From the NCBI GenBank assembly GCA_963929525.1, contig CAWVJB010000020.1, positions 2,890 through 66,889 on the forward strand: 64,000 bases of DNA, given 5' to 3'. Origin of the DNA: Bacillota bacterium (lineage in GTDB: Bacteria > Bacillota > Clostridia > TANB77 > CAG-508). Below are positions 11,866 through 61,551 of this stretch, piece by piece. The position numbers and the translations under genes are program-made. Under the pieces are notes generated by a model. The model was not told the origin of the DNA, searched no databases, and saw nothing but the letters and a program-made list of their open reading frames with translations. The stretch's first letter is position 1; every line of letters begins with the position of its first letter.

Positions 11866-11971
11866 GGTTGCCAAAGGGGACGGGTTAAATTGGCAACTTT
11901 TTAATTCAAAAAATTAATTATTTACGATAAATAACCAAAGTTGCCAATTTAACCCGTCCCCTTTGGCAACC
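11866..11971. repeat. Family B palindrome, copy 1
   Basis: Perfect 35-bp arms ggttgccaaaggggacgggttaaattggcaacttt with a 36-nt loop. Each arm is itself a hairpin (gttgccaa/ttggcaac) with GGGGACG in its loop. Confidence 0.9.
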
Positions 11972-12043
11972 GCAATTGAGACAAAAAGTCTATTGACAAA
12001 AAAATAGGGAATTGATAATATATACATATAATGGGGGAAAAGT

Positions 12044-12547
12044 ATGAATATATATCCAGATGCATATTTTGAAAAAGTGGAAGATATTAATATAGAATTT
12101 TTAAATAAAAATAAAATAAAGGCGCTATTATTGGATGTAGATAATACATTAGTAGACTATACTAAACAAATGACAGAAAGTGTTATAAAATGGATAAAAG
12201 AGTTAAAAGGTCAAGGAGTAAAACTATATATATTATCCAATACAAATGATAAACAAAAAATTGAAAATATTGTAAAAAAAATAGATATACCGTATCAGCA
12301 TTTTGCAATGAAACCATTAAAAAGAGGCTTTAAAAAAGCACAAAAGAAATTAGGAGAAAAAAGTGAAAATATAGCGATTGTAGGAGATCAAATATTTACA
12401 GATATTATCGGGGGAAAAAGATGCAATATGTATACGATATTGGTGGAGCCAATTAATAAAAAAGATTTTTGGTATACGGCATGGAAAAGACCAATAGAAA
12501 ATAACATAAAAAAGCAAATAAGACTAAAACAAACAATCATGAAATAA
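12044..12547 (+). CDS. yqeG: YqeG-family HAD phosphatase
   Basis: LLLDVDNTLV, LSNT and GDQIFTDIIGG motifs; 167 aa. Confidence 0.8.
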   Translation: MNIYPDAYFEKVEDINIEFLNKNKIKALLLDVDNTLVDYTKQMTESVIKWIKELKGQGVKLYILSNTNDKQKIENIVKKIDIPYQHFAMKPLKRGFKKAQKKLGEKSENIAIVGDQIFTDIIGGKRCNMYTILVEPINKKDFWYTAWKRPIENNIKKQIRLKQTIMK

Positions 12548-12629
12548 ACTTACAATACGATCAAAACAAAAGAAAAAAGATAAAATGACAATGTGAAACA
12601 TAAGGAAAAGGAATAAAAAGGAGATTAGA

Positions 12630-13379
12630 ATGTATTATAATGATGTACATATAGGTTATTATTTAGTAGTAGCCATACTAGGTTTATTGGTTGGACAATT
12701 GATGGATTGGGCAAATAAACGATTACCAGAATATAAGAAATTTTTATCATTAGATATATTTAAAGAATATAAAAGAAATTTTAAACCAAACTATGTATTG
12801 ATGTTATTAACTTCAGTAATTTATATAACATTGGTTTACACATTTGGCATAAAAGATACGTTTATTGCGAATTTAGATTTAATAAAATTCTTAATTTTGA
12901 CACCAATGTTGTTATCAGCATTTACTATAGATTACAAATTACAAATCATACCAAATCGATTAAATCTAACAATATTTGAATTTGGATTACTGTTTGCTTT
13001 CATATATGGATTATCAGATGTAGCAATTACTTTAAATATGTTATTAGGAATGCTAGCAGGTGCTGGAATTTTCTTATTAATCACATTAGTAGGTGGACTA
13101 TTTTATGGTAAAGAAGCCATGGGATTTGGTGATGTTAAATTAATGGGAGCATTAGGACTATTTTTTGGATTGTCCAATATTGTAGTTATTACATTAATAT
13201 CATTTTTAATAGGTGCAATTTTGAGTATTGGATTGTTAATTACAAAAGTAAAGAAAACAAATGAATATATACCATTTGGACCATTTATCGTAATTGCAAC
13301 ATTCATTAGCATGTATATACCATTTGAAACAATAAAATTTGTATTAATGAAAATATTTACATTAGGAATGTATAACTAA
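12630..13379 (+). CDS. Prepilin peptidase (A24 family)
   Basis: Polytopic membrane protein with GFGDVKLMGALGLFFG and IPFGPF motifs. No other type IV pilus or competence machinery genes in the window. Confidence 0.85.
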   Translation: MYYNDVHIGYYLVVAILGLLVGQLMDWANKRLPEYKKFLSLDIFKEYKRNFKPNYVLMLLTSVIYITLVYTFGIKDTFIANLDLIKFLILTPMLLSAFTIDYKLQIIPNRLNLTIFEFGLLFAFIYGLSDVAITLNMLLGMLAGAGIFLLITLVGGLFYGKEAMGFGDVKLMGALGLFFGLSNIVVITLISFLIGAILSIGLLITKVKKTNEYIPFGPFIVIATFISMYIPFETIKFVLMKIFTLGMYN

Positions 13380-13412
13380 AATTAAATATAAATAATAAGA
13401 GGGGATGATACA

Positions 13413-14471
13413 ATGAATCCTAAATTACAATGGTTAAGAAATAAGATGTCTAGTTTAGATTTACAAGGTTTAATTATTTCCAATCCAATAAATATCAAAT
13501 ATTTGACAAACATAAATGCAGAAGGAATATTATTATTAACTAGAAAAGAAAATATTTATATAACAGATGCAAGATATATAGAGCATGTTCATAGTATATT
13601 AACATTGTATGATGAAATTATCGTTTATGATATGAATGATGTATCAAAAGAAGACTATGAAAATTTCTTTATGTTTTGTGAAAATGTTGGATTTGAAGAA
13701 CATTATGTCACATATGCAGAATATAAAGAATATATGAGAAAATATAAAATTAATAGTTTGATAGAAACAGAATATATCATAGAAAAACAAAGAATGATAA
13801 AAGATGAAGAAGAAATCAGTAATATCAAAAAAGCATGTGAAATTACAGATAATTGCTTTTCATACATATTGGACTATATTAAACCAGGTATAACAGAAAA
13901 ACAAATTGCAAACGAAATTGAAGAATATTATAAACAAAGAACAGATGGCTTATCTTTTGATACAATTGTGGCATCAGGAGAAAATACTTCAAAACCACAT
14001 GCGATTCCAACAGATAGAAAAATACAGGATGTCGATATTATAACAATTGATATGGGATGTAAGGTAAATGGATATTGCTCAGATATGACAAGAACGTTTT
14101 TTGTTGGAGAAGTCCCAGAATATGTAAAACTAGTTTATGATTTGGTTTTAAAAAATCAGACACAAACAGCAAATGATTTTAAAGATGGGGTAAGTACAAG
14201 ATTGTTAACAAAAATGGTAGAAAATGATTTTAAATTAAATGGATATGATTTAATTCATAGTTTGGGTCACGGAGTAGGAATGGAAATACATGAAGCACCA
14301 TATATTAGTTATAAATCAGATATATTATTAAAAGAAAATATGGTTGTAACCAATGAACCAGGTATCTATATTCCAGGAAAATTTGGAGTAAGAATAGAAG
14401 ATACTGTACAAATTACAAAATTTGGTTGTATAAATTTAACCAATTCTGAGAAAAATTATATTGTAATATGA
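13413..14471 (+). CDS. M24-family Xaa-Pro aminopeptidase
   Basis: Creatinase-like N-terminal domain plus pita-bread domain (DMGC..NGYCSDMTRT, GHGVGMEIHE, NEPGIY, RIEDT). Confidence 0.85.
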   Translation: MNPKLQWLRNKMSSLDLQGLIISNPINIKYLTNINAEGILLLTRKENIYITDARYIEHVHSILTLYDEIIVYDMNDVSKEDYENFFMFCENVGFEEHYVTYAEYKEYMRKYKINSLIETEYIIEKQRMIKDEEEISNIKKACEITDNCFSYILDYIKPGITEKQIANEIEEYYKQRTDGLSFDTIVASGENTSKPHAIPTDRKIQDVDIITIDMGCKVNGYCSDMTRTFFVGEVPEYVKLVYDLVLKNQTQTANDFKDGVSTRLLTKMVENDFKLNGYDLIHSLGHGVGMEIHEAPYISYKSDILLKENMVVTNEPGIYIPGKFGVRIEDTVQITKFGCINLTNSEKNYIVI

Positions 14472-14474
14472 AAA

Positions 14475-14656
14475 TTTTACACTTCAGCCTAAGATATATA
14501 TTTATTATTTTTTACATCTCCTGTTCGTAATCACTTATGTTGAAAGATAAATCTTTCAACGAATGAAGATTGATCCAATTGCACGCACTATGTTCGTTTG
14601 GTCACTTACGCGATGTTGCAAAATAATAAATACATATCTTCGACTGGACTGTAACC
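14475..14656. repeat. Long degenerate palindrome with family A-like terminus (ggttacagtccagtcgaag)
   Basis: Arms ttacacttcagcctaagatatatatttattatttt / aaaataataaatacatatcttcgactggactgtaa. Central hairpin gttgaaag-ataaat-ctttcaac. Confidence 0.65.
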
Positions 14657-14768
14657 AAAAAGAGCAAAAATAGCTTAAAAACAGCAAAATGCTTGATTTT
14701 TATTGAAAAATGTAGTAAAATATATAAAGTTTTGTAATAGTAATTGAAAAATGAAAGGAGAAATGAAA

Positions 14769-15335
14769 ATGGCATCAGTATATTCAGCAGGAGATTTTAG
14801 AAATGGAACAACATTTGAAATGGAGGGAAATGTATATAGAATCGTAGAATTCCAACATGTTAAACCAGGAAAGGGATCTGCATTTGTAAGAACCAAATTA
14901 AAAAATGTTATCACAGGTGCAACATTAGAAAAAACATTTAACCCAGGAGATAAATTCCCAGCTGCACAAATAGAAAAGAAAAACATGCAATATTTATATA
15001 ATGATAGTGGTTTGTATTATTTTATGGATAATGAAACATATGACCAAATACCATTAAATGAAGACCAAATTGGTGATTGTTTAAAATACTTAAAAGAAAA
15101 TATGGAAGTAACAATACTTTCATACAAAGGAAATGTATTTGCAGTAGAACCACCTATATTTGTTGAACTACAAGTTACATATACTGAACCTGGATTTAGT
15201 GGAAATACAACAACAACATCAGGAAAACCAGCAAAATTAGAAACAGGTTTAGAAATTCAAGTACCATTATTCGTTGAAATTGGAGATATCTTAAGAATAG
15301 ATACTAGAACAGGCGAATATATGGAAAGAGTATAG
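14769..15335 (+). CDS. efp: Elongation factor P
   Basis: [17 protein letters not shown]...[20 protein letters not shown] 14769 lies 8 nt after AGGAG. Confidence 0.95.
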
Positions 15336-15349
15336 AAAGGTGAATCTTA

Positions 15350-15883
15350 ATGGCTAGACTAAGAGAAGAATATAAAAAATTTTTAGATGATATGGAAAAG
15401 AATTTAAAAAATAAAGAAGATTTAGAATATATAAAAGTTAGATTTTCAATGTTTGTTGATAAAGTAATTGATGAAATGGATATGCTTATAAATTATAAAA
15501 CGCAGAAAATGAACGAATTAGAGCAAAAACAAAAAGAAATTGATGATAAAATGAGTCAAATGCAACAAATTATTGATAATATTGAGAAAGATATATATTC
15601 TGATGAAGGTTTTGACTTTGAGATTATTTGTCCTTATTGTGATAATCAATTTGTGATAGATGTTGACGAAGATAAATCAGAAGTGGAATGTCCGGTTTGC
15701 AATAATATTATTGAATTAGATTGGACAGGAGATGTAGAGGAAGATTTAGATTGCAATGGAAGTTGCTCAACTTGTCATGAATGTGATGAAGAGCTAAATG
15801 AAGAACAACAAGGACAAAATAAATCAACTAAAAATAATATTGAAAATGATAATTCACAAGAAAATAATGATGATGATATGTAA
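15350..15883 (+). CDS. CD1247-N-terminal-domain-like protein with zinc ribbon and acidic tail
   Basis: Coiled-coil N-terminus, CPYC...CPVC ribbon and position directly after efp, as in many Clostridia. Confidence 0.5.
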   Translation: MARLREEYKKFLDDMEKNLKNKEDLEYIKVRFSMFVDKVIDEMDMLINYKTQKMNELEQKQKEIDDKMSQMQQIIDNIEKDIYSDEGFDFEIICPYCDNQFVIDVDEDKSEVECPVCNNIIELDWTGDVEEDLDCNGSCSTCHECDEELNEEQQGQNKSTKNNIENDNSQENNDDDM

Positions 15884-15896
15884 ACAAAAATAAAAA

Positions 15897-15932
15897 GTGT
15901 CATAAATAGTTCAGCTATTTGTGGCACTTTTT
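15897..15932 (+). terminator. Intrinsic terminator
   Basis: Stem gtgtcataaatag / ctatttgtggcac (two G.U pairs on the + strand) followed by ttttt. Confidence 0.7.
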
Positions 15933-15935
15933 GGT

Positions 15936-16070
15936 GAATAGGAAACAATATGCAACTTTAAGTTACTTAGGCTCAAAGTGAAAATAAATATTAAAATTTT
16001 ATTTTCAAAAGAAAAATAATTTTTTCGAAAACTTAAATATATATAGTTAAATTAGAAAAGTAAAGAAAGT
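15936..16070 (+). repeat. Family G module R4 (15936-16017) followed by a partial family H copy (16024-16070)
   Basis: gaataggaaacaatatgcaactttaagttacttaggctcaaagtgaaaataaatattaaaattttattttcaaaagaaaaat recurs at 19027, 50612 (-) and 61196. ttcgaaaacttaaatatatatagttaaattagaaaag matches H1/H2. Confidence 0.8.
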
Positions 16071-16087
16071 ACCAAACATATAAAAAA

Positions 16088-16708
16088 CTAGAAAAAATTT
16101 AAAGGATTTTGATATTTTCCATCTATTCGAATGCCTAAATGAAGATGAGTACCAGTTGTGGCACCATTTGTAGGTTTACCAGAAGAATCAGAATATTGAT
16201 TACCTTTTACACCATAAATATATTTAGGACCAACATATCCAATGACTTGTCCTTGTTTTACCATATCTCCCACTTTTACAATATAATTTGGAGAACAATG
16301 ACAATAGGTAACTTTGTAATTGCCAAAAGAAAGGGTAATGGTATATCCACCAGCACCTAAAAATTGTGTAAAAGTGATCTCTCCATCAGCCACAGCAATT
16401 AATTTTGTTCCCTCTGGTGCAGGAATATCAATACCAGAATGAGAGGAAGAAGCACCAGAAGTTGGAGAAACTCTTTTACCAAAATAGGAACTAATTCTAG
16501 TATAACCAGGAATTGGCCAAACAAAACCATCTGGATTCATGGAAATAATCTCAGAATCCAGATTATTTTCATAATAAGCACCGTTTGAACTTATCATAGG
16601 ACTAAAAAAGATAGTAATAAACAAAATCAAAAAAATAAGTATGAAAATAAAAGATTTAATATTTTGAAAAATAAAAATCACCTCATTTAAATAAAAAATA
16701 GAAACCAT
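16088..16708 (-). CDS. M23-family peptidoglycan endopeptidase (start uncertain)
   Basis: HSGIDIPAPEGTKLIAVADGEI...GTHLHLGIR is the M23 signature. The ORF-track N-terminus overlaps tRNA-Trp and its terminator, so the real start lies below 16700. Confidence 0.8.
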   Translation of the reverse strand: MVSIFYLNEVIFIFQNIKSFIFILIFLILFITIFFSPMISSNGAYYENNLDSEIISMNPDGFVWPIPGYTRISSYFGKRVSPTSGASSSHSGIDIPAPEGTKLIAVADGEITFTQFLGAGGYTITLSFGNYKVTYCHCSPNYIVKVGDMVKQGQVIGYVGPKYIYGVKGNQYSDSSGKPTNGATTGTHLHLGIRIDGKYQNPLNFF

Positions 16709-16732
16709 GTAACTGGTGCACAGTTTGGTTTC
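16689..16732 (-). terminator. Intrinsic terminator after tRNA-Trp
   Basis: Minus strand gaaacca-N18-tggtttc followed by tattttttattt. Confidence 0.6.
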
Positions 16733-16737
16733 CATTG

Positions 16738-16812
16738 TGGCAGGGGTAGTAGGATTCGAACCCACACAGGCGGTTTTGGAGACCGATGTGCTACCATTAA
16801 CACTATACCCCT
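16738..16812 (-). tRNA. tRNA-Trp (CCA)
   Basis: Reverse complement AGGGGTATAGTG...CTCCAAA...GGTTCGAATCC...CCCCTGCCA; 75 nt; close to B. subtilis tRNA-Trp. Confidence 0.9.
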
Positions 16813-16929
16813 ATCAATCATTTAATTACAACAATTAATATATTAGCATAAAAAAAAGATTTTATCAATATTTTTTTGAAAATTATTGACTTTTTTTAAT
16901 AAAGATAATAAAATATATAAAATTAAATA

Positions 16930-17152
16930 TCTACGGTGAAGAAGAAAAAATACTGTAATATTTATTTAAAGAGAGTTGGTGAAGGTGAGATACCAGCAAT
17001 AGATAAGTATGGGGAGCTTTGGAGTGGATTTAAAATGAAGGTGCTTAAAACTTCAGATAACTTTCATCTATGTTTTAAGAATTAGGGTGGAAACGCGGAA
17101 TATAACTTTCGTCCCTAGTATGTGATTATACTAGGTTGATGAAAGTTTTTTT
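16930..17152 (+). promoter_or_regulatory. T-box leader (riboswitch) for glyQS
   Basis: AGAGAG box and GGTGAAGGTGAGA distal motif, T-box sequence aattagggtggaaacgcgg, then terminator aactttcgtccctagtat...atactaggttgatgaaagttttttt. Confidence 0.85.
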
Positions 17153-17533
17153 GTTTTAAATTTAATGAAAAGCAGCAATCTGCACATTTTTATAGAAATA
17201 ACAACCCTCAACGTACAGAAGTACGCCCTCGGCTTGTTATTTCTATAAAAATGCACATCTTACTACTTTTGATTAAATTATGCGAATCAGATGAGAATTC
17301 AGCATCTAGCACATTTTCGTAATTTATTTCAAACCTCGATGTACAAATGTACACCTTCGGCTTGAAATAAATCACAAAAATGCACTATATAATAAATCTA
17401 ATCGATTTAGAAAGAATGCACATCTTACTACTTTTGATTAAATTATGTGATCAGATGAGAATTCAGCATCTTGCACATTTTTATTTTATTCATCAAACTT
17501 CGACGTATAGACATATTACAAAAAAACTTTCAT
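17139..17533. repeat. Family I repeat block between T-box terminator and glyQS
   Basis: Perfect 16-bp terminal inverted repeat atgaaagtttttttgt (17139-17154) / acaaaaaaactttcat (17518-17533). Internal ~95-bp direct repeat at 17251 and 17416, plus hairpins sharing cctcggcttg. Confidence 0.8.
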
Positions 17534-17567
17534 GGACTAGCAAATAAAATTAGAAGGAGGAATTGTT

Positions 17568-18950
17568 ATGTTAAAATCAATGGACACACTAGTTGCACTT
17601 TGCAAAAATAGGGGCTATATTTACCCAGGCTCAGAAATTTATGGAGGATTAGCAAACACTTGGGACTATGGACCTTTAGGGAACGAACTAAAAAACAATG
17701 TCAAAATGGCATGGAGAAAAAAATTTATACAAGAAAGCAAATATAATGTAGGATTAGATGCAGCAATTTTAATGAATCCTACAACATGGGTAGCTTCAGG
17801 ACATGTAGGCGGTTTCTCAGATCCATTAATCGATTGTAAAGAATGTAAAACAAGACATAGAGCAGATAAATTAATAGAAGAATGGGCACATGATAATGGA
17901 AAAGATATGATTGCAGATGGTATGTCTGATAAAGAATTAATAGATTTTATTAATGAAAATAAAATACCATGTCCAAATTGTGGAAAAACAAACTTTACAG
18001 ATATTAGAAAATTTAATTTAATGTTTAAAACTTTCCAAGGTGTAACAGAAGATAAAACGGCAGAAATCTATTTAAGACCAGAAACAGCACAAGGTATATT
18101 TGTAAATTTTAAAAATGTGATGAGAACAACAAGAAGAAAATTACCAATGGGAATTGCACAAATAGGAAAAGCTTTTAGAAATGAAATTACACCTGGAAAC
18201 TTCACATTTAGAACAAGAGAATTTGAACAAATGGAACTAGAATTCTTCTGTAAGCCAGGAACAGATTTAGAATGGCATGCATATTGGAAAGAATTCTGTA
18301 AAAATTGGTTATTAAATTTAGGAATCAAAGAAGAAAATATTAGATTAAGAGATCATTCAAAAGAAGAATTATCACACTATAGTAATGCAACAACAGATAT
18401 TGAATTTACTTTCCCATTTGGTTGGGGAGAATTATGGGGAATTGCAGATAGAACAGACTTTGACTTAAAGAGTCATATGAATGTTTCAAAAGAAGACTTC
18501 ACTTATACAGACCCAGAAACAAACGAAAAATATGTACCATATTGTATTGAACCATCATTAGGAGCAGATAGAGTTGCATTAGCATTTTTATGCAATGCCT
18601 ATGATGAAGAAGAAATTGGTGAAGGAGATACAAGAGTAGTATTACATTTACACCCAGTATTAGCACCATTCAAAATAGCCGTACTTCCATTATCTAAAAA
18701 ATTATCAGAAAAAGCACAAGAAGTACATGAGAAATTATCAAAGAAATTCATGTGTGATTATGATGAAACAGGAAGTATTGGAAAAAGATATAGAAGAGAA
18801 GATGAAATTGGTACACCATATTGTTTAACCGTAGACTTTGATACACTTGAAGATAATACAGTAACGATCAGAGATAGAGATACCATGGAACAAATTAGAA
18901 TTCCAATTGATGATGTAGAAAAATGGTTAGAAGAAAAATTAGAATTCTAA
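17568..18950 (+). CDS. glyQS: Glycine--tRNA ligase (homodimeric class II)
   Basis: Full-length GlyQS-like protein, 460 aa. GGAGG RBS and T-box upstream. Confidence 0.95.
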
Positions 18951-18986
18951 ATGTCCAATTGGGGACGTTTCTGTTTGGGACATTTT
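18951..18986 (+). repeat. Family C hairpin, copy 1 (terminator-like)
   Basis: atgtccaattggggacgtttctgtttgggacatttt lies immediately after the glyQS TAA. Confidence 0.85.
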
Positions 18987-19026
18987 ATGAACTTTAGGGA
19001 AATTCCTTAAAGTTCAATTTTTATTG

Positions 19027-19157
19027 TATAGGAAACAATACGAAACTTTAAGTTACTTAGGCTCAAAGTGAAAATAAATATTAAAATTTTATTTTTAAAA
19101 GAAAAATTGACGCTTATCTTGACTCTATATGGATTTTCCGTATCCAACAAGGTTAAG
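19027..19157. repeat. Family G composite (module R4 + inverted module R8)
   Basis: R4 as at 15936. R8 gaaaaattgacgcttatcttgactctatatggattttccgtatccaacaaggttaag is the reverse complement of 24136-24209 and 50544-50618. Confidence 0.8.
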
Positions 19158-19240
19158 TTTTTCTTATTGAATAGAAAAAATACTATGATTTCTCTATATT
19201 TTATGATATATTAGATATACTACATTATATGAGATTAAAT

Positions 19241-19511
19241 ATGAATAAAAAAATGTATATGTTTGAAGTAATCATCAAAAAAGTTCCAGATATAGATGGA
19301 GCATATATTGAATTTCCTTATGATGTAGAGAAAGAATTTAACAAAAAAAAGAGTAAAAGTGCATGCAACATTTGATGAGGAAGCATATGATGGAATTCTA
19401 GTTAGAATGGGAACACCTTGTCATATCATTGGAATTCGTAAGGAGATTCGAAAAAAGATAGGAAAACAACTAGGAGATAAAATAAAAGTAACAATTAAAG
19501 AAAGAGAATAA
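19241..19511 (+). pseudogene. DUF1905-domain protein, frameshifted in an A8 run
   Basis: MNKKMYMFEVIIKKVPDIDGAYIEFPYDVEKEFNKKK... stops at 19372. The next frame continues RVKVHATFDEEAYDGILVRMGTPCHIIGIRKEIRKKIGKQLGDKIKVTIKERE*. The switch is at A8, 19343-19350. Confidence 0.6.
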
Positions 19512-19532
19512 ATATATAAAGGAAGATAGAAA

Positions 19533-21446
19533 ATGAACTATAGAATTGTAAATGGATCTATTTCTTATGGAGCTGAAACGATATTAGAAGAAATAAATTT
19601 TGAAATAAAAGAAAAAGATAAGATAGCGATTATCGGAAGAAATGGAGCAGGAAAAACAACTTTTTTGAATGCTATAATTGATAATGAGATTTTAGAAGAA
19701 GGGATTGGAGAAGAAAAATTTCATGTGTATAAACAAGGAAATCCTGTTATTGGGTATTTAAAACAAATGAATTTTGAAAATTCTAACAAAACTATGTTAG
19801 AGGAAATATTAGAAGTTTATGTACCAATTTTAAATTTAGAAAACAGGATACAAGAAAAAGAAAAAGCCTTGCAAGAAAAGACAGATGAAAAATTGATAAA
19901 AGAATACACAAATGCCTTAGAACAATATGAAATACAAGGTGGATATGTATATAAAAAAGAATATGAAACAGCGATTAAAAAATTCGGATTCAGAGAAGAA
20001 GATAAAAACAAAAAAATAAATGAATTTTCTGGAGGTCAACGAACGAAGATTGCTTTCTTAAAATTATTATTAAGCAAGCCAGATATTTTATTATTAGATG
20101 AACCAACAAACCATTTAGATATTCCAGCAATTGAATGGTTGGAAAACTATTTAAAAAATTATCCAAAAGCAGTTGTGATTGTATCACATGATAGAATGTT
20201 TCTAGATAAGATTGTCAATAAAGTATATGAGATAGAATATGCAAGTATGGTAGAATATACAGGAAATTATACTGATTTTGAAAAACAAAAAAGAGAAAAT
20301 TATGAAAAACAATTGAAAGATTACGAATATCAACAAGCAGAAATCAAAAGATTGCAAGCTATTGCAGATAGGTTTCGATATAAACCAACCAAAGCAAAAA
20401 TGGCATTATCAAAATTAAAAAAGATTGAACAAATGACAATCATAGAAAAGCCAGAAGAATATGATTTAAAAACATTTTATGCTAACTTTGATGTAAAAGT
20501 ACAAAGTGGAAAAATAGTATTAAAAGTAAATAATCTAGAAATTGGATATGATAAACCAATTGCAGAAATATCTTTTGAATTATATAAAGGACAAAAACTA
20601 GCCATTATTGGAGAAAATGGAACGGGAAAATCAACACTTTTAAAAACATTAAATGGAAATATTCCTAAAATTAATGGAGAATTTGAATATGGATATCATG
20701 TGCAAAAAGGTTATTTTGATCAACAGATGGAATTTTCAAATCAAGAAAATACCATATTTGAAGAAATAGCTGAAACGTTTCTGGAATTAACAACGACACA
20801 AGTAAGGACATTGTTAGGAACATTTCTTTTTACAGGAGAAGATGTATTTAAGAAGATAAAAGTATTATCAGGAGGAGAAAGAGGAAGACTACAATTGTGT
20901 AAAATTTTAAAAAAGCAACCTAATGTCTTATTACTAGATGAGCCAACCAATCACATGGATATTGTGGGAAAAGAGAGTTTAGAAAACATACTAAAAGAAT
21001 ATACAGGAACTTTGATTTTTGTTTCTCATGATCGATATTTTGTCAATAAACTTGCAGATTGTATATTAGAATTTGATGATGGAAAAGTAACATTTTATAA
21101 AAAGAATTATCAAGAATTTTTAGAATATAAAGAAAATCAAAAAGATACCATTGATGAAACAAAAGAAGTAGGAGAAAACATAAAACAGGTAAAAGTTAAG
21201 AAAAAAGCAATCCATCCATATTTTATAGAAAAAGAGAGAAATCGAATACAAAATAAGATGAATAAAATTGAACAAGAGATTAATGATAAGGAAAAAAAAA
21301 TTCAAGACATTGAAAAAGAGATGACGAAAGAAGAAAATACTTCAGATTATATAAAACTAAACGAATTACAAGAAGAAATACAAAAAATTAATCAAGAAAT
21401 AGAAGAGAAAATGCAAGAATGGGAGAATTTGAGTGATCAACTTTAG
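19533..21446 (+). CDS. ABC-F family ATPase (two NBDs, no TMD, C-terminal coiled coil)
   Basis: Two Walker A motifs (GRNGAGKTT, GENGTGKST), two LSGG signatures, an inter-domain linker and a K/E-rich tail. Confidence 0.9.
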   Translation: MNYRIVNGSISYGAETILEEINFEIKEKDKIAIIGRNGAGKTTFLNAIIDNEILEEGIGEEKFHVYKQGNPVIGYLKQMNFENSNKTMLEEILEVYVPILNLENRIQEKEKALQEKTDEKLIKEYTNALEQYEIQGGYVYKKEYETAIKKFGFREEDKNKKINEFSGGQRTKIAFLKLLLSKPDILLLDEPTNHLDIPAIEWLENYLKNYPKAVVIVSHDRMFLDKIVNKVYEIEYASMVEYTGNYTDFEKQKRENYEKQLKDYEYQQAEIKRLQAIADRFRYKPTKAKMALSKLKKIEQMTIIEKPEEYDLKTFYANFDVKVQSGKIVLKVNNLEIGYDKPIAEISFELYKGQKLAIIGENGTGKSTLLKTLNGNIPKINGEFEYGYHVQKGYFDQQMEFSNQENTIFEEIAETFLELTTTQVRTLLGTFLFTGEDVFKKIKVLSGGERGRLQLCKILKKQPNVLLLDEPTNHMDIVGKESLENILKEYTGTLIFVSHDRYFVNKLADCILEFDDGKVTFYKKNYQEFLEYKENQKDTIDETKEVGENIKQVKVKKKAIHPYFIEKERNRIQNKMNKIEQEINDKEKKIQDIEKEMTKEENTSDYIKLNELQEEIQKINQEIEEKMQEWENLSDQL

Positions 21447-21526
21447 AGGAAACTTTAAATATTGAAATTTCCGTAAAAGGTTATATAATATTAGAGTTGA
21501 AATTTAGTGATTTGGGAGGATGTAAA

Positions 21527-21707
21527 ATGGTAAAAATAGCATTTTTTGATACAAAAAAATTTATCTATATTACTTTCTATGCCAAATGTATTTATTACTT
21601 CTCATCAAGCATTCTTTACTAAAGAAGCTTTAAATAAAATTGCCAGTGATACATTAGAAAATATAAAAAAAGAAATAGAAACAGGGACATGTGAAAATGA
21701 ACTTTAA
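21527..21707 (+). pseudogene. Remnant of D-2-hydroxyacid (D-lactate) dehydrogenase
   Basis: MVKIAFFDTKK (N-terminus) joins, out of frame, to PNVFITSHQAFFTKEALNKIASDTLENI (C-terminus). About 270 internal codons are missing. Confidence 0.5.
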
Positions 21708-21715
21708 AGGATAGA

Positions 21716-21910
21716 GATAATTTTGGGATGGACTCAATTTTCCATTTTTAAATTGAGAAATCTTAAAAATATAGAATATAAAGTCAATATACGATTTTGT
21801 ATAAGCTAAATTTGAATTTAAATACGCAAAATCGTTTTATTTTTATATTCTATATTTTTTATCTTAATGAAATTAGAAAAAAGGGAAAAATGAATTAGTT
21901 CAAAATTCTT
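21716..21910. repeat. Family E-related degenerate palindrome (mini version)
   Basis: Core cgattttgtataagctaaattt...aaatacgcaaaatcg is shared with 24690-24840 and 54400-54550. Nested arms aaaaatatagaatataaa / tttatattctatattttt. Confidence 0.65.
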
Positions 21911-21911
21911 C

Positions 21912-21947
21912 AAAATGTCCCAAACAGAAACGTCCCCAATAGGACAT
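21912..21947 (-). repeat. Family C hairpin, copy 2
   Basis: aaaatgtcccaaacagaaacgtccccaataggacat. On the minus strand it directly follows, and shares A residues with, the sspH TAA. Confidence 0.85.
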
Positions 21948-22129
21948 TAATTATATAAATTTCTTTCATATAAGTCTTGGATAAATACATCTTTTTCTTC
22001 AAAATTGTCAATAAAACCTACTTTTGCTATATTTTCATTGACTCCTTGAATCCATACAGGTCTATCGTCATAAAAAACATCACACTTTTCTTTATTTGCT
22101 AATATAGAATTAATTCTAGAAATATCCAT
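21947..22129 (-). CDS. sspH: H-type small acid-soluble spore protein
   Basis: 60 aa; MDISRINSILANKEKCDVFYDDRPVWIQGVNE fits the SASP-H pattern. GGGAGG RBS. Confidence 0.7.
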   Translation of the reverse strand: MDISRINSILANKEKCDVFYDDRPVWIQGVNENIAKVGFIDNFEEKDVFIQDLYERNLYN

Positions 22130-50743: not shown

Positions 50744-52330
50744 TTAATAATAAATCATATAATCAATATCTGGAAAGACACAATCCTTTTTAGAAATGTC
50801 TTTTAAGAAATCTTCATCAATATGATTTTCTTTTATTTGATAATATAATTTTGTAAATCTACCAATGTGGTCTTTAATTCTTTTTTTAGCATAATCTACC
50901 ATGGTACCATTTGTGATGATAAATAGCCAATCACTACTTTGTGCTAATAATAATTCTCTAGCACATTGATTTAATGCTTTTTTCTTCAAGCCTTTTGCAT
51001 TTGGATATAAATGAGCAAGTTCACACATTCTATCACCTGCAACATGAAGATGTCTATGTACATAATCATTTGTTTGATTTAACCAAACTTCACTATATCC
51101 ATTAGCTCCCCAACTAGAACGACAAGGAGAAGCAACTTGCATGTTTGGATATTTATCAATATATTCAGATGGTGTAATTAATTCAAAATTACAATCATCA
51201 TAGTAGATTTTTTTAAATAATACATATAACCAATATGGTCCTTCATACCACCAATGACCATATAATTCAGCATCATAAGGGCACAATATAATTGGTGGAT
51301 TTTCTGTATATTGAGCAAGATTTCCAATTTGCGCATTTCGACAGTCAAAGAAGTGAGCAGCTTGTCTTTCTGCGGAATCTTTTGCCCATTGAAGATTGTA
51401 ATAATCTTTAAATTCTGTTTTTCCCGTAATTCTATAATATTTAATACCTGTATGAACTCTAACACCATTATGAGCGATATATGGTTTGATATAGTCATAA
51501 TCAGCATCATAACCAATATCACGGTAAAATTCTCTGTAATTAAAATCACCTGGGTAACCATTAATAGAACTCCATACTTGTCTTGAAGATTCTATGTCTC
51601 TACCAAAAGCAATCACACCTTCTGGGGAAACAATAGGAGCAAAGGTACCATATAATGGAGTAGGGTCTGCATATAGAATTCCGTGTGTTTCTGTAATAAT
51701 ATAATCAATGCCAAATTCTTTTAAGTATTTATCAGCTTCTGGAACATAACCGCATTCAGGTAGCCAAATACCACGAGGTTTTCTTCCGAAATATCTTTCA
51801 TATGTTTGTACACCAACAGCGATTTGTGCTTTTACGGTTTTTTCATTAACATATAGTATTGGGAAATATCCATGTGTTGCTCCACAAGTGATAATTTCTA
51901 ATACGCCAATATCTTGAAAATGTTTAAAACCTTGAATCAGATTACATTTATAAACATCTTTAAATAAATGTAAATCATTTGAATATCTATCATAATAGTA
52001 ATGTGCTAATTGATTTAAACGCTCATTACCAGCAGTTCTTTTGATTTCTTTTCCAGATAATTCAATCATTTGTTTTAAATAGCGAATATATTTCTTTTGT
52101 AATAATTTGTTATCCAACATAGAAAGTAGAGGAGGGGTCATAGACATAGTAATTCTAAAATGAACGCCTTCATCTACTAATTTTTGAAAATTTGTTAATA
52201 ATGGTATATAAGTTTCAGATATTGCTTCATATAGCCAAGATTCCTCTAGATAATCATCACTTTCTGGATGATGAATAAATGGAAGATGTGCATGAAGAAC
52301 GAAACTAACATAACCTTTTTTTTCTTGCAT
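50744..52330 (-). CDS. GH57-family 1,4-alpha-glucan branching enzyme-like protein
   Basis: MQEKKGYVSFVLHAHLPFIHHPE... is a GH57/DUF1957 pattern. ATG 52330 follows AAAGGAG. Confidence 0.85.
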   Translation of the reverse strand: MQEKKGYVSFVLHAHLPFIHHPESDDYLEESWLYEAISETYIPLLTNFQKLVDEGVHFRITMSMTPPLLSMLDNKLLQKKYIRYLKQMIELSGKEIKRTAGNERLNQLAHYYYDRYSNDLHLFKDVYKCNLIQGFKHFQDIGVLEIITCGATHGYFPILYVNEKTVKAQIAVGVQTYERYFGRKPRGIWLPECGYVPEADKYLKEFGIDYIITETHGILYADPTPLYGTFAPIVSPEGVIAFGRDIESSRQVWSSINGYPGDFNYREFYRDIGYDADYDYIKPYIAHNGVRVHTGIKYYRITGKTEFKDYYNLQWAKDSAERQAAHFFDCRNAQIGNLAQYTENPPIILCPYDAELYGHWWYEGPYWLYVLFKKIYYDDCNFELITPSEYIDKYPNMQVASPCRSSWGANGYSEVWLNQTNDYVHRHLHVAGDRMCELAHLYPNAKGLKKKALNQCARELLLAQSSDWLFIITNGTMVDYAKKRIKDHIGRFTKLYYQIKENHIDEDFLKDISKKDCVFPDIDYMIYY

Positions 52331-53479: not shown

Positions 53480-53720
53480 AGTTTCTGTTCAGACTAGTAT
53501 ATAAGGGGGAAGTATTTATAAAGTATTTATTACTCGGTTCAATACAAATATTAAAAAATTCTAAAATCATTTTATGGTGACTTTTCACTTACTTCTCACT
53601 ACGTTCGACGTGAACATTTTCCAAAAAAAGATTTAAGAATTTCTAAATATTTTCCAATCACATTCATAATGAAATAATTTATAAATACTTCTCCCTTATA
53701 TACTAGTTTGAATAGAAACT
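53480..53720. repeat. 241-bp long palindrome (K)
   Basis: agtttctgttcagactagtatataagggggaagtatttataaa pairs with tttataaatacttctcccttatatactagtttgaatagaaact. The three mismatches are all G.T on the + strand. Confidence 0.85.
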
Positions 53721-53858: not shown

Positions 53859-54305
53859 ATGGTAGAAAAAAATAATAAATTAACAATAAGAGTGGCAGGC
53901 ATTGTACCCGTGGATAATGGATTTATATTTATGCATAGAAAAAAAGTAAAAAGGAATAAGGATTATGAGGAATACTATACTTTCCCAGGAGGACATTTAG
54001 AAAATGGCGAAACATTAGAAGAAGGAGTTATCAGAGAAATTAAAGAAGAATTCGGTATAAAGGTAAAAGTAATAAAGAAATTATATGAATTAGAAAATAA
54101 TAAATTGAATATGAAAGAATATTTCTTTTTATGTGAATATATAGAAGGAAAATTTGGAACAGGAGATGGAGAAGAATTTTTCAATAATCCAGAATATAAA
54201 GATTCTGGTGAATATATTCCAGAAATTATGAAAAAAGAAGACATATCAAAAATTGTGTTATTACCACCAGAAATAAAAGAAAAGTTTTTAAAAGATTTCT
54301 GTTAG
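53859..54305 (+). CDS. NUDIX hydrolase
   Basis: GGHLENGETLEEGVIREIKEEFG Nudix box. ATG 53859 follows GGAGGG. Confidence 0.8.
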   Translation: MVEKNNKLTIRVAGIVPVDNGFIFMHRKKVKRNKDYEEYYTFPGGHLENGETLEEGVIREIKEEFGIKVKVIKKLYELENNKLNMKEYFFLCEYIEGKFGTGDGEEFFNNPEYKDSGEYIPEIMKKEDISKIVLLPPEIKEKFLKDFC

Positions 54306-54637
54306 GGACGTGCCAAATCGTTTCAAAATGAGCCCAAAAGGGACAGACCTTAACCTTTTCGTTCCAAAGGAACCTGTAGTTATATAAAGTCACTCACGAT
54401 TTTGTATAAGCTAAATTTTCATAGAATTCTAAAATAAAAAAAATGTATTCATGCACTCAGACCCTCTCATAACGAGAGTACCGTGCAATTCATACATTTT
54501 TTTATTTAAGAATTTCTACATTCAAATTTAGATACGCAAAATCGATTCGTTTTTTATATAACTACAGATCCCTTTGGAACGAAAAGGTTAAGGTCTGTCT
54601 CTTTTGGGCTCATTTTGAAATGATTTGACACGTCCTC
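54302..54637. repeat. Family E palindrome, copy 2 (336 bp)
   Basis: ttagggacgtgccaaatcgtttcaaaatgagcccaaaagggacagaccttaacc... and its complement. The central ~150 bp is nearly identical to copy 1. Confidence 0.9.
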
Positions 54638-55443: not shown

Positions 55444-55690
55444 TTAGTAAGTTATAGTTCGGACCTAAGTAGTCTTCCAGGGGGGATAGGTTATATTTTC
55501 AAGCGTTCGAATGCGACCAGAATAGTTTTACAAATTCTTAGGATAAAAGCACAAAGGATCCTGTTTCCAGGGATTGTTGTGTTTTTATTCTTAGAATTTG
55601 TTAAACGGGAATTGGCGGGTAGTCGAGAACCTTAAAAATATAACCTATCCCCCTTGGAAGATTACTTAGGTCTGAGCAGTAACTTAGTAA
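55444..55690. repeat. 247-bp long palindrome (L) with family A-like termini
   Basis: ttagtaagttatagttcggacctaagtagtcttccaggggggataggttatatttt pairs with aaaatataacctatcccccttggaagattacttaggtctgagcagtaacttagtaa. Confidence 0.85.
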
Positions 55691-58160: not shown

Positions 58161-59984
58161 ATGCCGGGACCAATGAGAGGACCTAGAGGAGGTCAAACAA
58201 CAGAAAGAGCAAAAGATTTTAAGAAAACAACAAAAAAATTAATAAAATCCTATTTAGCAAAATACAAAATTCCTATTATCATTGTTATGATATTTGCCAT
58301 TGGTAGTACGATATTTACCATTGTAGGACCAAAAATATTAGGAAATGCAACCACAGAAATCTTTAATGGATTGGTTAGTAAATTAAGTGGTGGAACAGGT
58401 ATTGATTTTGGAAAAGTTGGTCAAATTGCTTTAACATTATTAGGATTATATGTTATCAGTGCATTGTTTTCTTTTGTACAAAGATTTTTAATGACAAATG
58501 TAGCACAAAAAATCACTTATAAAATTAGAAATGATATAGCCATCAAAATTAATAAATTGCCAATGAAATATTTTGATAAAAAGACACATGGAGAAGTGTT
58601 ATCTATTATCACAAATGATATTGATACATTGGGAATGAACCTAAATCAAAGCATTACAGAAATTATTACATCTATATGTACCATTATTGGTATATTGATT
58701 ATGATGTTTTCTATCAGCTGGCAAATGACATTAATTTCATTAGTTATCTTGCCAATAGCAGGAATATTAGTAACCTTTATTGTCAAAAAATCACAAAAAT
58801 ATTTTACAAGACAACAAGACTACTTAGGACATGTCAATGGTCAAGTAGAAGAAATCTATGGTGGATTAAATATTGTAAAAGTATTTAATGCAGAAGAAAA
58901 AGTCACAAAAGATTTTGAAAAAGCGAATGAAGAATTATATCATTCTGGTTGGAAATCACAATTCTTATCAGGTTTAATGCATCCAGTTATGAACTTTATA
59001 TCAAATGTAGGATATGTGGCAGTAGCTGTAGCTGGTGGATATCTAGCAATTAATGGAACGATTACCGTTGGTAATATTCAAAGTTTTATACAATATAATA
59101 GACAATTTACTCAGCCAATCAATCAATTGGCACAAATTTCTAACATGTTACAAGCCATGATGGCAGCAGCAGAAAGAATTTTTGAATTCTTAGAAGAACC
59201 AGAAGAAGTTGTAACAGCAAAAGGAAATATAGATACTTCTAAATTAAAAGGAAATGTAGAATTTAAACATGTTAAATTTGGATATGCCCCAGAAAGAACC
59301 ATTATCAATGATTTTAATGCAAGTGTCCATGAAGGACAAAAAATAGCCATTGTTGGACCAACAGGAGCTGGAAAAACCACCATGGTAAAACTATTAATGA
59401 GATTTTATGATGTCACAGATGGAGAAATTGATGTGGACGGTCATAATGTAAAAGACTTTGATAGAGGCGAACTTCGTAAAATGTTTGGTATGGTATTGCA
59501 AGATACATGGTTATTTGGTGGAACAGTAGAAGAAAATATCAAATATAGTAAAGAAGACGCCACAGATACAGAAGTGGTAGAAGCAGCAAAAGCAGCACAT
59601 GTACATCATTTTATCAAAACATTACCAAATGGATATCATTCATTAATCAATGAAGAATCAACCAATATATCAGCAGGTCAAAAGCAATTACTTACCATTG
59701 CCAGAGTCATATTAGCAGACCCTAAAATCTTAATATTAGATGAAGCAACAAGTTCAATTGACACAAGAACAGAAATACAAATACAGGCAGCTATGGATAA
59801 TCTAATGAAGGGAAGAACAAGCTTTATCATTGCTCATAGATTATCAACCATAAAAAATGCAGATTTAATATTAGTTATGAATCATGGAGACATTGTAGAA
59901 CAAGGTACTCATGAAGAGCTACTTGCAAAAAATGGATTTTATGCTGATTTATATAATTCTCAATTTGAAGAAGTGGAAGAATAA
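58161..59984 (+). CDS. ABC exporter permease/ATPase subunit (heterodimer partner)
   Basis: Six TM helices and an NBD (GPTGAGKTT, ISAGQKQLLTIAR, LILDEATS). Start is 1 nt after the upstream stop. Confidence 0.9.
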   Translation: MPGPMRGPRGGQTTERAKDFKKTTKKLIKSYLAKYKIPIIIVMIFAIGSTIFTIVGPKILGNATTEIFNGLVSKLSGGTGIDFGKVGQIALTLLGLYVISALFSFVQRFLMTNVAQKITYKIRNDIAIKINKLPMKYFDKKTHGEVLSIITNDIDTLGMNLNQSITEIITSICTIIGILIMMFSISWQMTLISLVILPIAGILVTFIVKKSQKYFTRQQDYLGHVNGQVEEIYGGLNIVKVFNAEEKVTKDFEKANEELYHSGWKSQFLSGLMHPVMNFISNVGYVAVAVAGGYLAINGTITVGNIQSFIQYNRQFTQPINQLAQISNMLQAMMAAAERIFEFLEEPEEVVTAKGNIDTSKLKGNVEFKHVKFGYAPERTIINDFNASVHEGQKIAIVGPTGAGKTTMVKLLMRFYDVTDGEIDVDGHNVKDFDRGELRKMFGMVLQDTWLFGGTVEENIKYSKEDATDTEVVEAAKAAHVHHFIKTLPNGYHSLINEESTNISAGQKQLLTIARVILADPKILILDEATSSIDTRTEIQIQAAMDNLMKGRTSFIIAHRLSTIKNADLILVMNHGDIVEQGTHEELLAKNGFYADLYNSQFEEVEE

Positions 59985-60021
59985 TGTCCTTTTGGGGACG
60001 TTTTTGTTTGGGACATTTTTT
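59983..60021 (+). repeat. Family C hairpin, copy 5
   Basis: aatgtccttttggggacgtttttgtttgggacatttttt, sharing AA with the TAA stop. Confidence 0.85.
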
Positions 60022-60061: not shown

Positions 60062-60187
60062 AACGTTGCACAGAAAAATTGCTATGCAATTTTTCGCGTC
60101 GACAAATCTTTATGCTTCTTCGAGAACTTAAATATATATAGTTAAGTTAGAAAAGTAGAGAAAAGTTCTCGCGAAGCGAGATTTGTC
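60062..60187 (+). repeat. Family H element, copy 2
   Basis: Differs from 35628-35750 at only three positions (tac/tat, atattt/atcttt, a TA indel). Confidence 0.85.
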
Positions 60188-60399
60188 TGGTATTGCATTT
60201 AGAAATGTTTTCTTTTGAAAATTTTGAAGATGAATAAAAGATAACAAAAATATTAAGATAATATAAAAAATAAATGAATAAAAGGCATCGTTTTGAACTA
60301 TACCCCAAAAAGTAGAGTTCAAAACGATGCCTTTTAAAAGTGTGACAAGTATGTCGTTTAGCTAATTTAAATATGTCATATTCGCCATATTTAGAAAAG

Positions 60400-61077
60400 C
60401 TAATCTCTTCTCTTTCCAAAAATAGAAAGAATCCTTAAGAAAATGTTGATAAAATCAAGATATAATTGCATAGCACAATAAATATATATTTTTTCTTGGT
60501 CAATATTAGGTTCTAATTGTAAAGCTTTTATTTTATTAATATCATAAACAGTAACTCCAAAGAATACTGATAAAATTACCCAATCTAGTATTAAGTCAAA
60601 CATAGAACTTTTAAAAATAAATAAGTTTACTAAGCTCAGAATTAAACCAATAATCAAAAATACATTTAGATAAGTTCCCCAACTGCTTAAGTCTTTATTT
60701 GTTTTATATCCGATCAAACTTAAAATACCAAAAATCAAAGCAGAAGCAATAAATAAAGTAATGATTGAGTTTAATTCAAAAACAGCAAAAATAACAGACA
60801 GTGTGACTCCATTTAGTGCAGCATATACAAAATACAGAATGCCAACAATAACTGGTGGTAATTTTCTAAATAGAAGGCTAAATAGCAAAACAGCAATAAC
60901 TTCTATAATAAGTAATCCTGTAAAAGAACCTTCTAATGCGATTGTATAAAATAATCCAGAAGAATAGGTATACCAAGCGATAAATGCTGAACCCAATAGA
61001 CCTAAGAACATCCAGAAAAATGTTTTTCCAAAAAGTTTATTCTCAGTAGACATATTTTGTACTTCGTTTTCTTCCAT
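60400..61077 (-). CDS. Bax inhibitor-1/YccA family membrane protein
   Basis: Seven TM helices, FFWMFLGLL..., typical BI-1 length. ATG 61077 follows AAAGGGG. Confidence 0.8.
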   Translation of the reverse strand: MEENEVQNMSTENKLFGKTFFWMFLGLLGSAFIAWYTYSSGLFYTIALEGSFTGLLIIEVIAVLLFSLLFRKLPPVIVGILYFVYAALNGVTLSVIFAVFELNSIITLFIASALIFGILSLIGYKTNKDLSSWGTYLNVFLIIGLILSLVNLFIFKSSMFDLILDWVILSVFFGVTVYDINKIKALQLEPNIDQEKIYIYCAMQLYLDFINIFLRILSIFGKRRD

Positions 61078-61188
61078 ATCAAAACCCCTTTCCATATTAT
61101 ATAAATTTAGTATACAAATAAAATAGAAAATATGCAATATATAAAAGTAAATTGTTAAAATATGACTAAATTTATTGTTAACCGTATT

Positions 61189-61297
61189 GTTCTTGTATAG
61201 GAAACAATATGAAACTTTAAGTTACGCAACTCAAAGTGAAAATAAATTTCTCACATTTTATTTTCAAAAGAAAAATCGAGTTTCCCTATACAAGAAC
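61189..61297. repeat. Family G element (R4 core flanked by gttcttgtatagg / cctatacaagaac)
   Basis: 13-bp terminal inverted repeat encloses an R4 copy (61196-61276). Confidence 0.8.
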
Positions 61298-61322
61298 GTC
61301 GCTTTGCTCTAACCATTTCACA

Positions 61323-61417
61323 CAAATTTTACTAACATAAAATTTGACGCCGAACAATAATGCGCGCTTTAAAATCTTAGGAATAGAGAAAATATAAAAA
61401 AAGCCTGCTATTGTTCT
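61323..61417 (+). repeat. Family F element, copy 3
   Basis: caaattttactaacataaaatttgacgccgaacaataatgcgcgc...aaagcctgctattgttct. Confidence 0.8.
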
Positions 61418-61481
61418 AAATATATTTATGAAAACGGTTATACATTTATTGAAATTTTATTTAACATATGGCATAATAAAA

Positions 61482-61551
61482 ATGTCCCACAGAGAAACGA
61501 ATGCAATGGGACATAAAAAATGTCGCACAAACAAACGAACCCAATGCGACA
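61482..61551 (-). repeat. Two tandem degenerate family C hairpins
   Basis: atgtccca-N17-tgggacat and tgtcgca-N17-tgcgaca. Both loops keep (a)aacga. Confidence 0.7.

Follow-up and report, generated by a model that had tools for sequence, protein, structure and literature searches.

The 64 kb stretch of DNA analysed here (the window; contig CAWVJB010000020.1) comes from a low-GC member of the gut Clostridia, and its intergenic regions display the heptamer GGGGACG (CGTCCCC on the opposite strand) in the loops of short hairpins. The window has a GC content of 26-32% and a coding fraction of 0.81, with 48 open reading frames (ORFs) accepted as genes. A search of both strands yields 15 exact matches, where 0.30 are expected and where the maximum in 100 dinucleotide-preserving shuffles was three; this corresponds to ~0.23 copies per kb, or about one per 4 kb. 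The count given in the original prediction is reproduced, as are its coordinates with a single correction (50507 is really 50508) and its statement that no copy falls inside a confident coding sequence: all 15 lie outside the 48 ORFs, which, given the coding fraction, has a probability of ~2e-11 by chance. The strands of the copies strictly alternate along the window (+,-,+,-...), and the copies are therefore convergent inverted pairs. This alternation had been missed, and what were described as independent hairpins are actually the paired ends of doublets and of elements resembling MITEs, the miniature transposable elements with inverted repeats. The heptamer thus belongs to a real and strongly non-random feature, namely palindromic doublets akin to repetitive extragenic palindromes (REPs) and REP doublets forming hairpins (REPINs), with the tag displayed in the loop.

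The genome codes for PolC, SspH, GPR, YtxC and RemA, hence the host is a spore-forming Firmicute. Contigs syntenic to the window derive from animal-gut metagenomes, and the corresponding metagenome-assembled genomes (MAGs) bear the titles 'uncultured Clostridium sp.', 'Clostridia', 'Eubacteriales' and 'Bacillota'.

The repeated unit is an end module of 30-35 nt, composed of an outer arm (~5-10 nt, including a W-run), GGGGACG, 5-9 variable nucleotides, an inner arm complementary to the outer arm, and a T-run, such that the box faces outward and the T-run inward. Two modules opposed around an AT-rich centre constitute a doublet, which may be short (~105-120 bp) or long (250-370 bp), and which can be folded either as two small hairpins or as a single long hairpin. 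Folded as single-stranded DNA, each doublet adopts a single long hairpin (z values of -10 to -31), and the inverted arms of the elements, at 35-102 nt and 88-100% complementarity, represent terminal inverted repeats. When 42-nt segments were folded to minimum energy, 14 of the 15 copies had the heptamer near the apex of a 7-13 bp hairpin, in loops of 13-17 nt, in agreement with the hairpin-loop location first proposed; the exception, at 38116, possesses the canonical GTCC/GGAC stem, yet its minimum-energy fold favours an alternative. The stems originally assigned to families B, C and D (GTTGCCAA/TTGGCAAC, ATGTCC/GGGACAT and GATGATTTT/AAAATCATC, respectively) are likewise correct.

Three doublets carry B-type ends. 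The short doublet B1 (11866-11971) consists of two identical 35-nt modules (GGTTGCCAAA-GGGGACG-GGTTAAA-TTGGCAAC-TTT) around a 36-nt AT-rich centre; its arms are 100% complementary and it folds as one long hairpin (dG -64.8, z -16.6). The long doublet B2 (23997-24261; dG -124, z -17) occupies the slot between the PRK and RNHCP genes, and its 147-nt interior is common to the long doublet B3 (50492-50745; dG -94.6, z -10.4), located between ytxC and a GH57 gene. Modules of the C type are more scattered. One on the plus strand (18948-18987), ATGTCC-AATT-GGGGACG-TTTCTGTTT-GGGACAT-TTTT, lies directly past the glyS stop codon and forms the left end of a longer element that has decayed; the interior of that element (19015-19190) is an inverted homologue of the B2 and B3 interiors. 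A heterologous doublet (21713-21949) combines a degenerate AGGGA-type module (21713-21749), with GGGATGG for the heptamer, and an intact minus-strand C-type module (21912-21949), whose box at 21931 is its partner; an intact version is present in a sister species (L001, 14998/15160; L-numbers denote related metagenome contigs or loci compared with the window). At 34351-34447, a plus-strand C module (34351-34390, box at 34364) is paired with a minus-strand hairpin, TGAACA...TGTTCA (34408-34436), which carries GGAGACG and is followed by the outer arm AAAAGGGACGT. A minus-strand C-type module (38096-38131) adjoins the ribosome-binding site of an amylase gene, and a plus-strand one (59981-60020) overlaps the stop codon of an ABC transporter gene. 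Two tandem decayed C-type modules on the minus strand (61479-61551), with CGAATGC and CGAACCC in place of CGTCCCC, are candidate partners for the box at 59994. Degenerate or heterologous partners were thereby found nearby for several copies that had looked like singletons or members of long-range pairs.

Family D is represented by two short doublets. D1 (42677-42805; GATGATTTT-GGGGACG-GAGCA-AAAAATCATC) lies between remA and rpoZ, has two additional TGATTTTGGG units at its left end, and is kept at the orthologous site across species. D2 (43659-43778; arms 98% complementary) lies between gmk and uvrA and is a recent copy of a D doublet of the remA-site type. Family E comprises inverted-repeat elements of 330-370 bp with tips of the form TTAGGGACGTGCC, the relaxed version of the heptamer noted in the original prediction. 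The first element (E1, 24581-24946) has inverted arms of ~100 nt; the hairpin at its tip reads GAAACG-TTA-GGGACG-TGCCAAAT-CGTTCC, and GGGACAGACC forms a second box. Its left tip has decayed to GAGAACG. A solo-arm deletion allele of E1 is found in L045 and a 120-nt version in the sister species. The second element (E2, 54301-54637) lies upstream of lexA.

Other repeats and genes deserve mention. Four more MITE-like inverted-repeat elements, devoid of the heptamer, are located at 17159-17279, 39591-39814, 53480-53720 and 55444-55690 (arms 49-60 nt, 84-98% complementary), and small palindromic elements abound in the genome generally. Three dispersed intergenic repeats were also observed, the first at 15925-16017, 19015-19107 and 61184-61276 (inverted at 50614-50702), the second at 2863-2941, 49335-49413 and 61351-61429, and the third at 6762-6811 and 37970-38019. 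Some of these are nested in heptamer-ended elements, and the intergenic DNA is therefore a mosaic of modules. Upstream of the glycyl-tRNA synthetase gene, a T-box leader-like RNA (16927-17119, plus strand) scores 78 bits against an Rfam gathering score of 93. Positions 21450-21710 hold the remnants of a 2-hydroxyacid dehydrogenase gene that is intact (328 aa) in the sister species (L001 13995-14981). The uvrA gene (43873-46702) is split into ORFs of 579 and 313 aa by an apparent +1 frameshift near 45600; other strains of the window species have the same split, and relatives encode one protein of 942-944 aa. In the gmk-uvrA slot of a related species, L155 (3240-3850) has a GC-rich insertion of ~600 nt that is probably structured and has no Rfam match.

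One box on many stems

The same box is carried by at least seven arm types: TTGCCAAA/TTTGGCAA, GTGCC/GGCAC, TGTCC/GGACA, GATGATTTT/AAAATCATC, AGGGA/TCCCT, TAGGGATT/AATCCCTA and CCAATTT/AAATTGG. Further arms are GAAACG/CGTTYC (family E) and TGAACA/TGTTCA (one hairpin of the window). The tips vary by family (GTTGCC, TGTCC, TGATGA, AGGGA), and the box, 9-15 nt inside, is invariant. End modules and interiors are also mixed, the interior beside the C module at 18961 being homologous to the interiors of two B-ended elements.

The related low-GC DNA that was fetched contains 226 copies of GGGGACG in total, against ~4.7 expected. Where distinct copies are adjacent and within 300 nt of each other, they are convergent (+-) in 40 cases, divergent (-+) in none and on the same strand in 10, the last being nested or tandem layers. 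The spacing peaks at 76-89 nt, and the long forms span 125-275 nt. The heptamer has no strand skew in this DNA and is instead strictly paired in convergent orientation.

Stem covariation was assessed in an ungapped alignment of 39 distinct modules, all selected for the exact heptamer. An 8-pair stem was paired in 87.8% of cells, as compared with 63.6% in shuffles and 29-53% in slid controls, and double changes were found in 59 cells versus 17.8 in shuffles. Since this alignment had been selected for the exact heptamer, hairpins were re-ascertained by their arms alone. GGGGACG was then present in 63 of 63 hairpins of family B, 25 of 28 of family C and 15 of 18 of family D, while the rest of the loop differed between copies. 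The core of the original prediction, namely that a reader with sequence specificity is implied when unrelated stems present a single loop sequence, is upheld: the stems covary, and hairpins found by their arms overall keep the heptamer in at least 90% of cases.

Alleles, breakpoints and distribution

The A24-M24 intergenic region provides a clean comparison of an empty and a filled site. In the window, AACTAAAAT is directly followed by TAAATATAAATAA, and in the sister species AACTAAAAT is followed by GTCCAATT-GGGGACG-..., from which it follows that the outer arm GTCC-AATT belongs to the inserted DNA and that the box is subterminal, at about nt 9-15. The centre of D2 is 80% identical to the centre of the remA-site doublet of L157 (shuffled mean 0.55, maximum 0.65), and the relatives L151 and L158 have no doublet between gmk and uvrA. 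Whole doublets are therefore copied to new sites. Five alleles of the PRK-RNHCP slot are seen among close relatives: B doublets in a short and in a long version, a doublet of the C type, a nested ++-- arrangement, and a palindrome on its own whose centre holds an odd CC. No target duplication or flanking direct repeat was detected in 26 distinct doublets; one filled site has a possible 7-bp direct repeat, CTAAAAT.

At the orthologous remA-rpoZ site, species that are ~78% identical at third codon positions have modules that are 91-100% identical and a centre that is 63-72% identical. When B1 is compared between the window and the sister species, the same two substitutions are found in both arms as a mirror image, which implies either arm-to-arm homogenisation or selection for complementarity. 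An invertible promoter was considered and rejected, as no centre aligns better when reversed and all alleles are co-linear. No excision footprints of the arm-W-GGGCCC-W-arm type were found.

Strains ~99.9% identical to the window were compared at the element sites by means of flank anchors. The length changes at these sites are tandem insertions directly 5' of GACG, in units ending at GG(G)^GACG, the exceptions being a 1-nt change in an A-run at 38116 and 1-nt changes in E2. At 42707 in D1, three alleles are seen, in which TGATTTTGGG occurs in 0, 1 or 2 extra copies, together with a scrambled GATGAGGGGAGGG form. At 38116, L011 has a 12-nt tandem duplication, TGTCCTTTTGGG, with its end at GGG^GACG. 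In the sister species, AATGTCCAATTGGG is duplicated at the box, and the right tip of a family E element has TATGTTAGG once, twice or three times depending on the strain. Units from another arm type occur at the same position in L022 and L048. Furthermore, three deletion alleles terminate in or beside the box (slashes mark the junctions): ...GGGGCAA/CC/AATTGCCCC in L006, GGGGAC/ at B1 in L001, and GGGAACG/ATTTGGCACGTCCC at E1 in L045. As the C, D and E units are without microhomology, these changes point to repeated strand breakage at GG(G)^GACG.

The distribution of the heptamer is narrow. Syntenic relatives that share gene order and near-identical proteins contain no copy (20 kb of L167 and ten 8.3 kb loci, L168-L177), nor do L150-152, L156 and L158, and the elements are therefore confined to one subclade. 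The motif-positive lineages are those of the window, L001-L006, L149, L153-155 and L157. In L167-L177 the PRK and RNHCP genes overlap; in the window lineage a doublet stands between them. Words specific to the B and C modules have no match in viral contigs, family E has none in PLSDB, and a metagenome scan for module words returned at least 15 loci, mostly from one sample; among the matches listed from a genome scan with 15-mers, chance hits predominated. No Rfam family matches the elements at gathering score, sub-threshold hits to miRNA precursors merely reflecting the long hairpins. Open-access literature on the heptamer, on Clostridium MITEs and on REPs in Firmicutes contains no description of this family that we could find, in keeping with the remark in the original prediction that the motif was not a recognised repeat.

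A putative loop-reading enzyme and its alternatives

These observations lead us to favour, with moderate confidence, the reading that GGGGACG is a subterminal box kept invariant in a superfamily of small mobile palindromes, non-autonomous and similar to REPINs and bacterial interspersed mosaic elements (BIMEs), which occupy intergenic DNA in a low-GC subclade of gut Clostridia, and that a trans-acting enzyme reads and nicks it. The heptamer is probably the docking site of this putative DNA-cutting enzyme. Encoded elsewhere in the genome, the enzyme would recognise GGGGACG displayed in a hairpin and would nick at GG(G)^GACG. What is inserted and copied is the entire doublet with its outer arms, and no target duplication is left behind. 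Both the existence of such a dedicated enzyme and its action on the hairpin in single-stranded or extruded DNA are inferred. As one heptamer would be recognised and nicked, every stem family would be mobilised. Secondarily, fixed copies may have been kept through some benefit, or a lack of harm, of modules at gene ends, where the first hairpin lies 10-30 nt past stop codons and both T-runs face inward.

Among the readers first suggested, the mobile-element option is preferred because of the presence/absence alleles, the copied doublet, the breakpoints in the motif and the absence from syntenic sister lineages; the specific candidate, a Y1 or REP-associated tyrosine transposase (RAYT), was not found, and the modules do not fit the definition of a REP. 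A more far-reaching version of our reading is that the enzyme is of a new kind, which reads the loop heptamer regardless of the stem and nicks GG(G)^GACG, and that the elements form a chromosomal REPIN-like system of Firmicutes unrelated to RAYT or IS200, its logic being nearer to plasmid and viral Rep origins than to known transposon ends. We put this forward tentatively and consider it doubtful.

Several points weigh against an enzyme-mobilised element. The micro-duplications of the B type can be accounted for by slippage between the AAAGG repeats flanking TTGCC, and the breakpoints in the loops could reflect structure-specific nucleases and not a dedicated enzyme. No clean recent insertion of a whole element was seen between near-identical strains; comparisons between species, in which intergenic DNA also turns over in other ways, are the source of the copied doublet and of the empty and filled sites. 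Between the two modules of D1 a C/A difference is fixed across species, and heterologous doublets have also persisted, so it is the small hairpin, and not the long palindrome alone, that is maintained; the long palindrome is not always the maintained feature. Finally, a partner has not come to light. As the original prediction had it, no partner gene is visible in the window: the scanned ORFs have no transposase-like domain, and Pfam and NCBIfam scans of the unnamed ORFs revealed nothing resembling a transposase. A search with a verified IS608 TnpA query detected no IS200/RAYT-like ORF in ~0.67 Mb of related DNA, which covers a few percent of any one genome. No multi-copy transposase-like protein emerged from 42 MAG loci (229 ORFs compared all-against-all), which gave only syntenic orthologues and paralogues of ABC and SpoVA type.

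Two genes of the window were examined and set aside. The RNHCP zinc-ribbon gene (24279-24593) has an element on either side; in motif-free relatives, however, its reading frame overlaps that of PRK and it has no flanking repeats, and the protein is highly conserved and of a housekeeping type. This RNHCP-domain protein is 75-97% identical across many gut Clostridia, and its gene is translationally coupled to the PRK/uridine-kinase-like gene in relatives; neither literature on its function nor a solved structure was found. An AAA_14/DUF4143 ATPase gene (27711-29057) is present in the window and missing from the sister species at the same position; the junctions of this insertion are without heptamer modules, and it was rejected. 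Larger mobile elements were also noted. In a closely related strain (L008 1-7950, contig_5816), an element of ~11.9 kb, which encodes a Mob_Pre relaxase as well as a large serine recombinase, lies in a DUF285 gene (window position ~36087). Contigs of this species (L159-L162, 1-900) break some 7 kb upstream of the window start, at a region with a NikA-like protein and a MobA-type relaxase, an indication that a mobilisable element is integrated beside the window.

The alternative that survives best, which we nonetheless judge unlikely, is that these are ordinary MITEs of a cut-and-paste (DDE) insertion sequence, GGGGACG being a double-stranded transposase box in the terminal inverted repeat and the small hairpin being incidental. 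Their terminal inverted repeats are genuine, the ~100-nt arms and second related box of family E resemble multi-site transposon ends, E1 has a TA flank on its intact right side, and breakage a few nucleotides inside the end resembles staggered end cleavage; the possible CTAAAAT repeat would also fit. However, a double-stranded model leaves the stem covariation within each repeat unexplained, the tips differ between families around a box that is invariant further inside, and neither the 26 doublets nor the footprint search gave the expected traces. In addition, no parent insertion sequence with these ends is among the matches listed from the genome, metagenome, viral and plasmid scans, for which exact words were required. 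Should a standard insertion sequence with these ends exist, the system would be an ordinary one.

It is less probable still that the modules are host signals in RNA or DNA (a bidirectional terminator or insulator, or a loop site for an RNA-binding protein) that were spread by duplication and kept by selection, with no dedicated enzyme. Of eight plus-strand modules, five begin 10-30 nt past the stop codon of a plus-strand gene, the T-runs on either side are directed inward, modules are much more conserved across species than synonymous sites, and solo modules retain the orientation of a terminator. Yet loops of 13-17 nt make poor intrinsic terminators, and the modules, despite their T-run, lack the GC-rich stem and 3-8 nt loop that precede the U-run of an intrinsic terminator. 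A terminator scan of positions 10000-26000 called no canonical module hairpin; it flagged an alternative 8-pair hairpin (21929-21948) inside a C module, and separate canonical terminators near modules, such as that at 18988-19016. The terminator or RNA-protein site mentioned in the original prediction thus retains little weight as the main role of the modules. Moreover, minus-strand partners lie in 5' leaders, where they are unable to terminate the downstream gene. DNA-level breakpoints, tandem duplications of ends, nested layers and presence/absence alleles count against a host signal, and sister lineages with the same genes lack the modules, PRK and RNHCP even overlapping there.

Neisseria DNA uptake sequences are short, over-represented words that sometimes occur as inverted pairs near gene ends, which recalls the heptamer, but a DNA-uptake signal or another genome-wide word (resembling Chi or the FtsK-orienting polar sequences, KOPS) is highly improbable here, as the motif is found solely within the hairpin modules and never in the coding 81% of the window, is paired convergently without strand skew, and is absent from close relatives, with no link to competence seen.

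The system also has practical consequences. Its recognition geometry offers a precise lead to the putative enzyme, whose gene would be expected in single copy, between doublets, and in motif-positive lineages only. The elements reshape gene boundaries, in that they split a translationally coupled gene pair and supply sequence at stop codons and ribosome-binding sites. They also break assemblies, which is relevant for the annotation of these MAGs.

Comparison with known systems

REPINs consist of two inverted REPs with a less conserved spacer, form a long hairpin, persist, and in Proteobacteria are mobilised by a RAYT (TnpA-REP), a tyrosine HUH transposase acting in trans (PMC3116915, PMC3337134, PMC5581495). 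The RAYT (Y1 HUH) gene of such a system is present in single copy, with repeats on its flanks. The present elements share with REPINs and BIMEs an extragenic location, high copy number, lack of target duplication and persistence at orthologous sites, as well as the organisation into inverted short palindromes with a spacer less conserved than the units and a long-hairpin fold. Several sequence families per genome, vertical inheritance and confinement to a lineage are further points in common. By definition, a REP is a palindrome of 20-40 nt whose loop measures 2-5 nt, or else a bulged long hairpin, and whose GT[AG]G tag precedes the stem by 0-2 nt on the 5' side (PMC6006769). In contrast, the stem foot here has neither GTAG nor GTGG, and the tag, GGGGACG, is in a loop of 13-17 nt. 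The AT-rich stems of 7-13 bp, the Clostridium-like Firmicute host and the use of one tag on at least seven unrelated stems also depart from REPINs and BIMEs. No RAYT was found in the window or in the related DNA described above, which covers a few percent of any one genome.

CGTC-tagged REPs resemble the elements in some respects. They possess an unpaired terminal CGTC, a stem of 8-9 bp, a loop of 4-5 nt and a CCA tail. Their reported hosts are Proteobacteria, Chlorobi, Bacteroidetes, Spirochaetes and Thermotogae but no Firmicutes, and they have no known dedicated transposase (Di Nocera et al. 2013, PMC3733652). The reverse complement of our heptamer contains CGTC, and head-to-head dimers predominate in both. 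The 8-9 bp stems of CGTC REPs, with A/T pairs beside the tag, and the lack of a known dedicated transposase are likewise comparable. In the elements described here, however, CGTC is inside a 13-17 nt loop as part of the longer invariant GGGGACG, and there is no CCA tail.

The bacterial MITEs Correia (Neisseria), RUP (Streptococcus pneumoniae) and bcr1 (Bacillus cereus group) have TA or other target duplications and ends in common with a known insertion sequence. Like them, the present elements are 100-370 bp long, have terminal inverted repeats, are intergenic, would give long-hairpin transcripts and occur as nested or mosaic copies; they differ in having no target duplication, no parent element that could be found and a covarying hairpin of its own in each repeat. 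The ends of IS200/IS605 elements and of their miniature derivatives, the palindrome-associated transposable elements (PATEs), also lack target duplications and have subterminal hairpins that are recognised as single-stranded DNA and cleaved at fixed points. Their hairpins, however, are direct (on the same strand), with cleavage outside the hairpin and guided by base-pairing, whereas here the modules are inverted and the break is in the loop.

HUH Rep proteins nick in hairpin loops, as at IR-II of pT181, IR-I of pMV158 and the nonanucleotide of CRESS viruses. These sites resemble ours in that a conserved short loop sequence is presented on a variable stem and the nick is inside the loop sequence. 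They are single replication origins of plasmids or viruses, unlike the hundreds of chromosomal inverted doublets seen here. REP and REPIN systems are understood nearly only in Proteobacteria, where the tag is at the foot of the hairpin and a RAYT is the partner. The doublets of these uncultured gut Clostridia are comparably abundant and differ in how they would be recognised, one loop heptamer being shared by many stems and coinciding with a hot spot of breakage.

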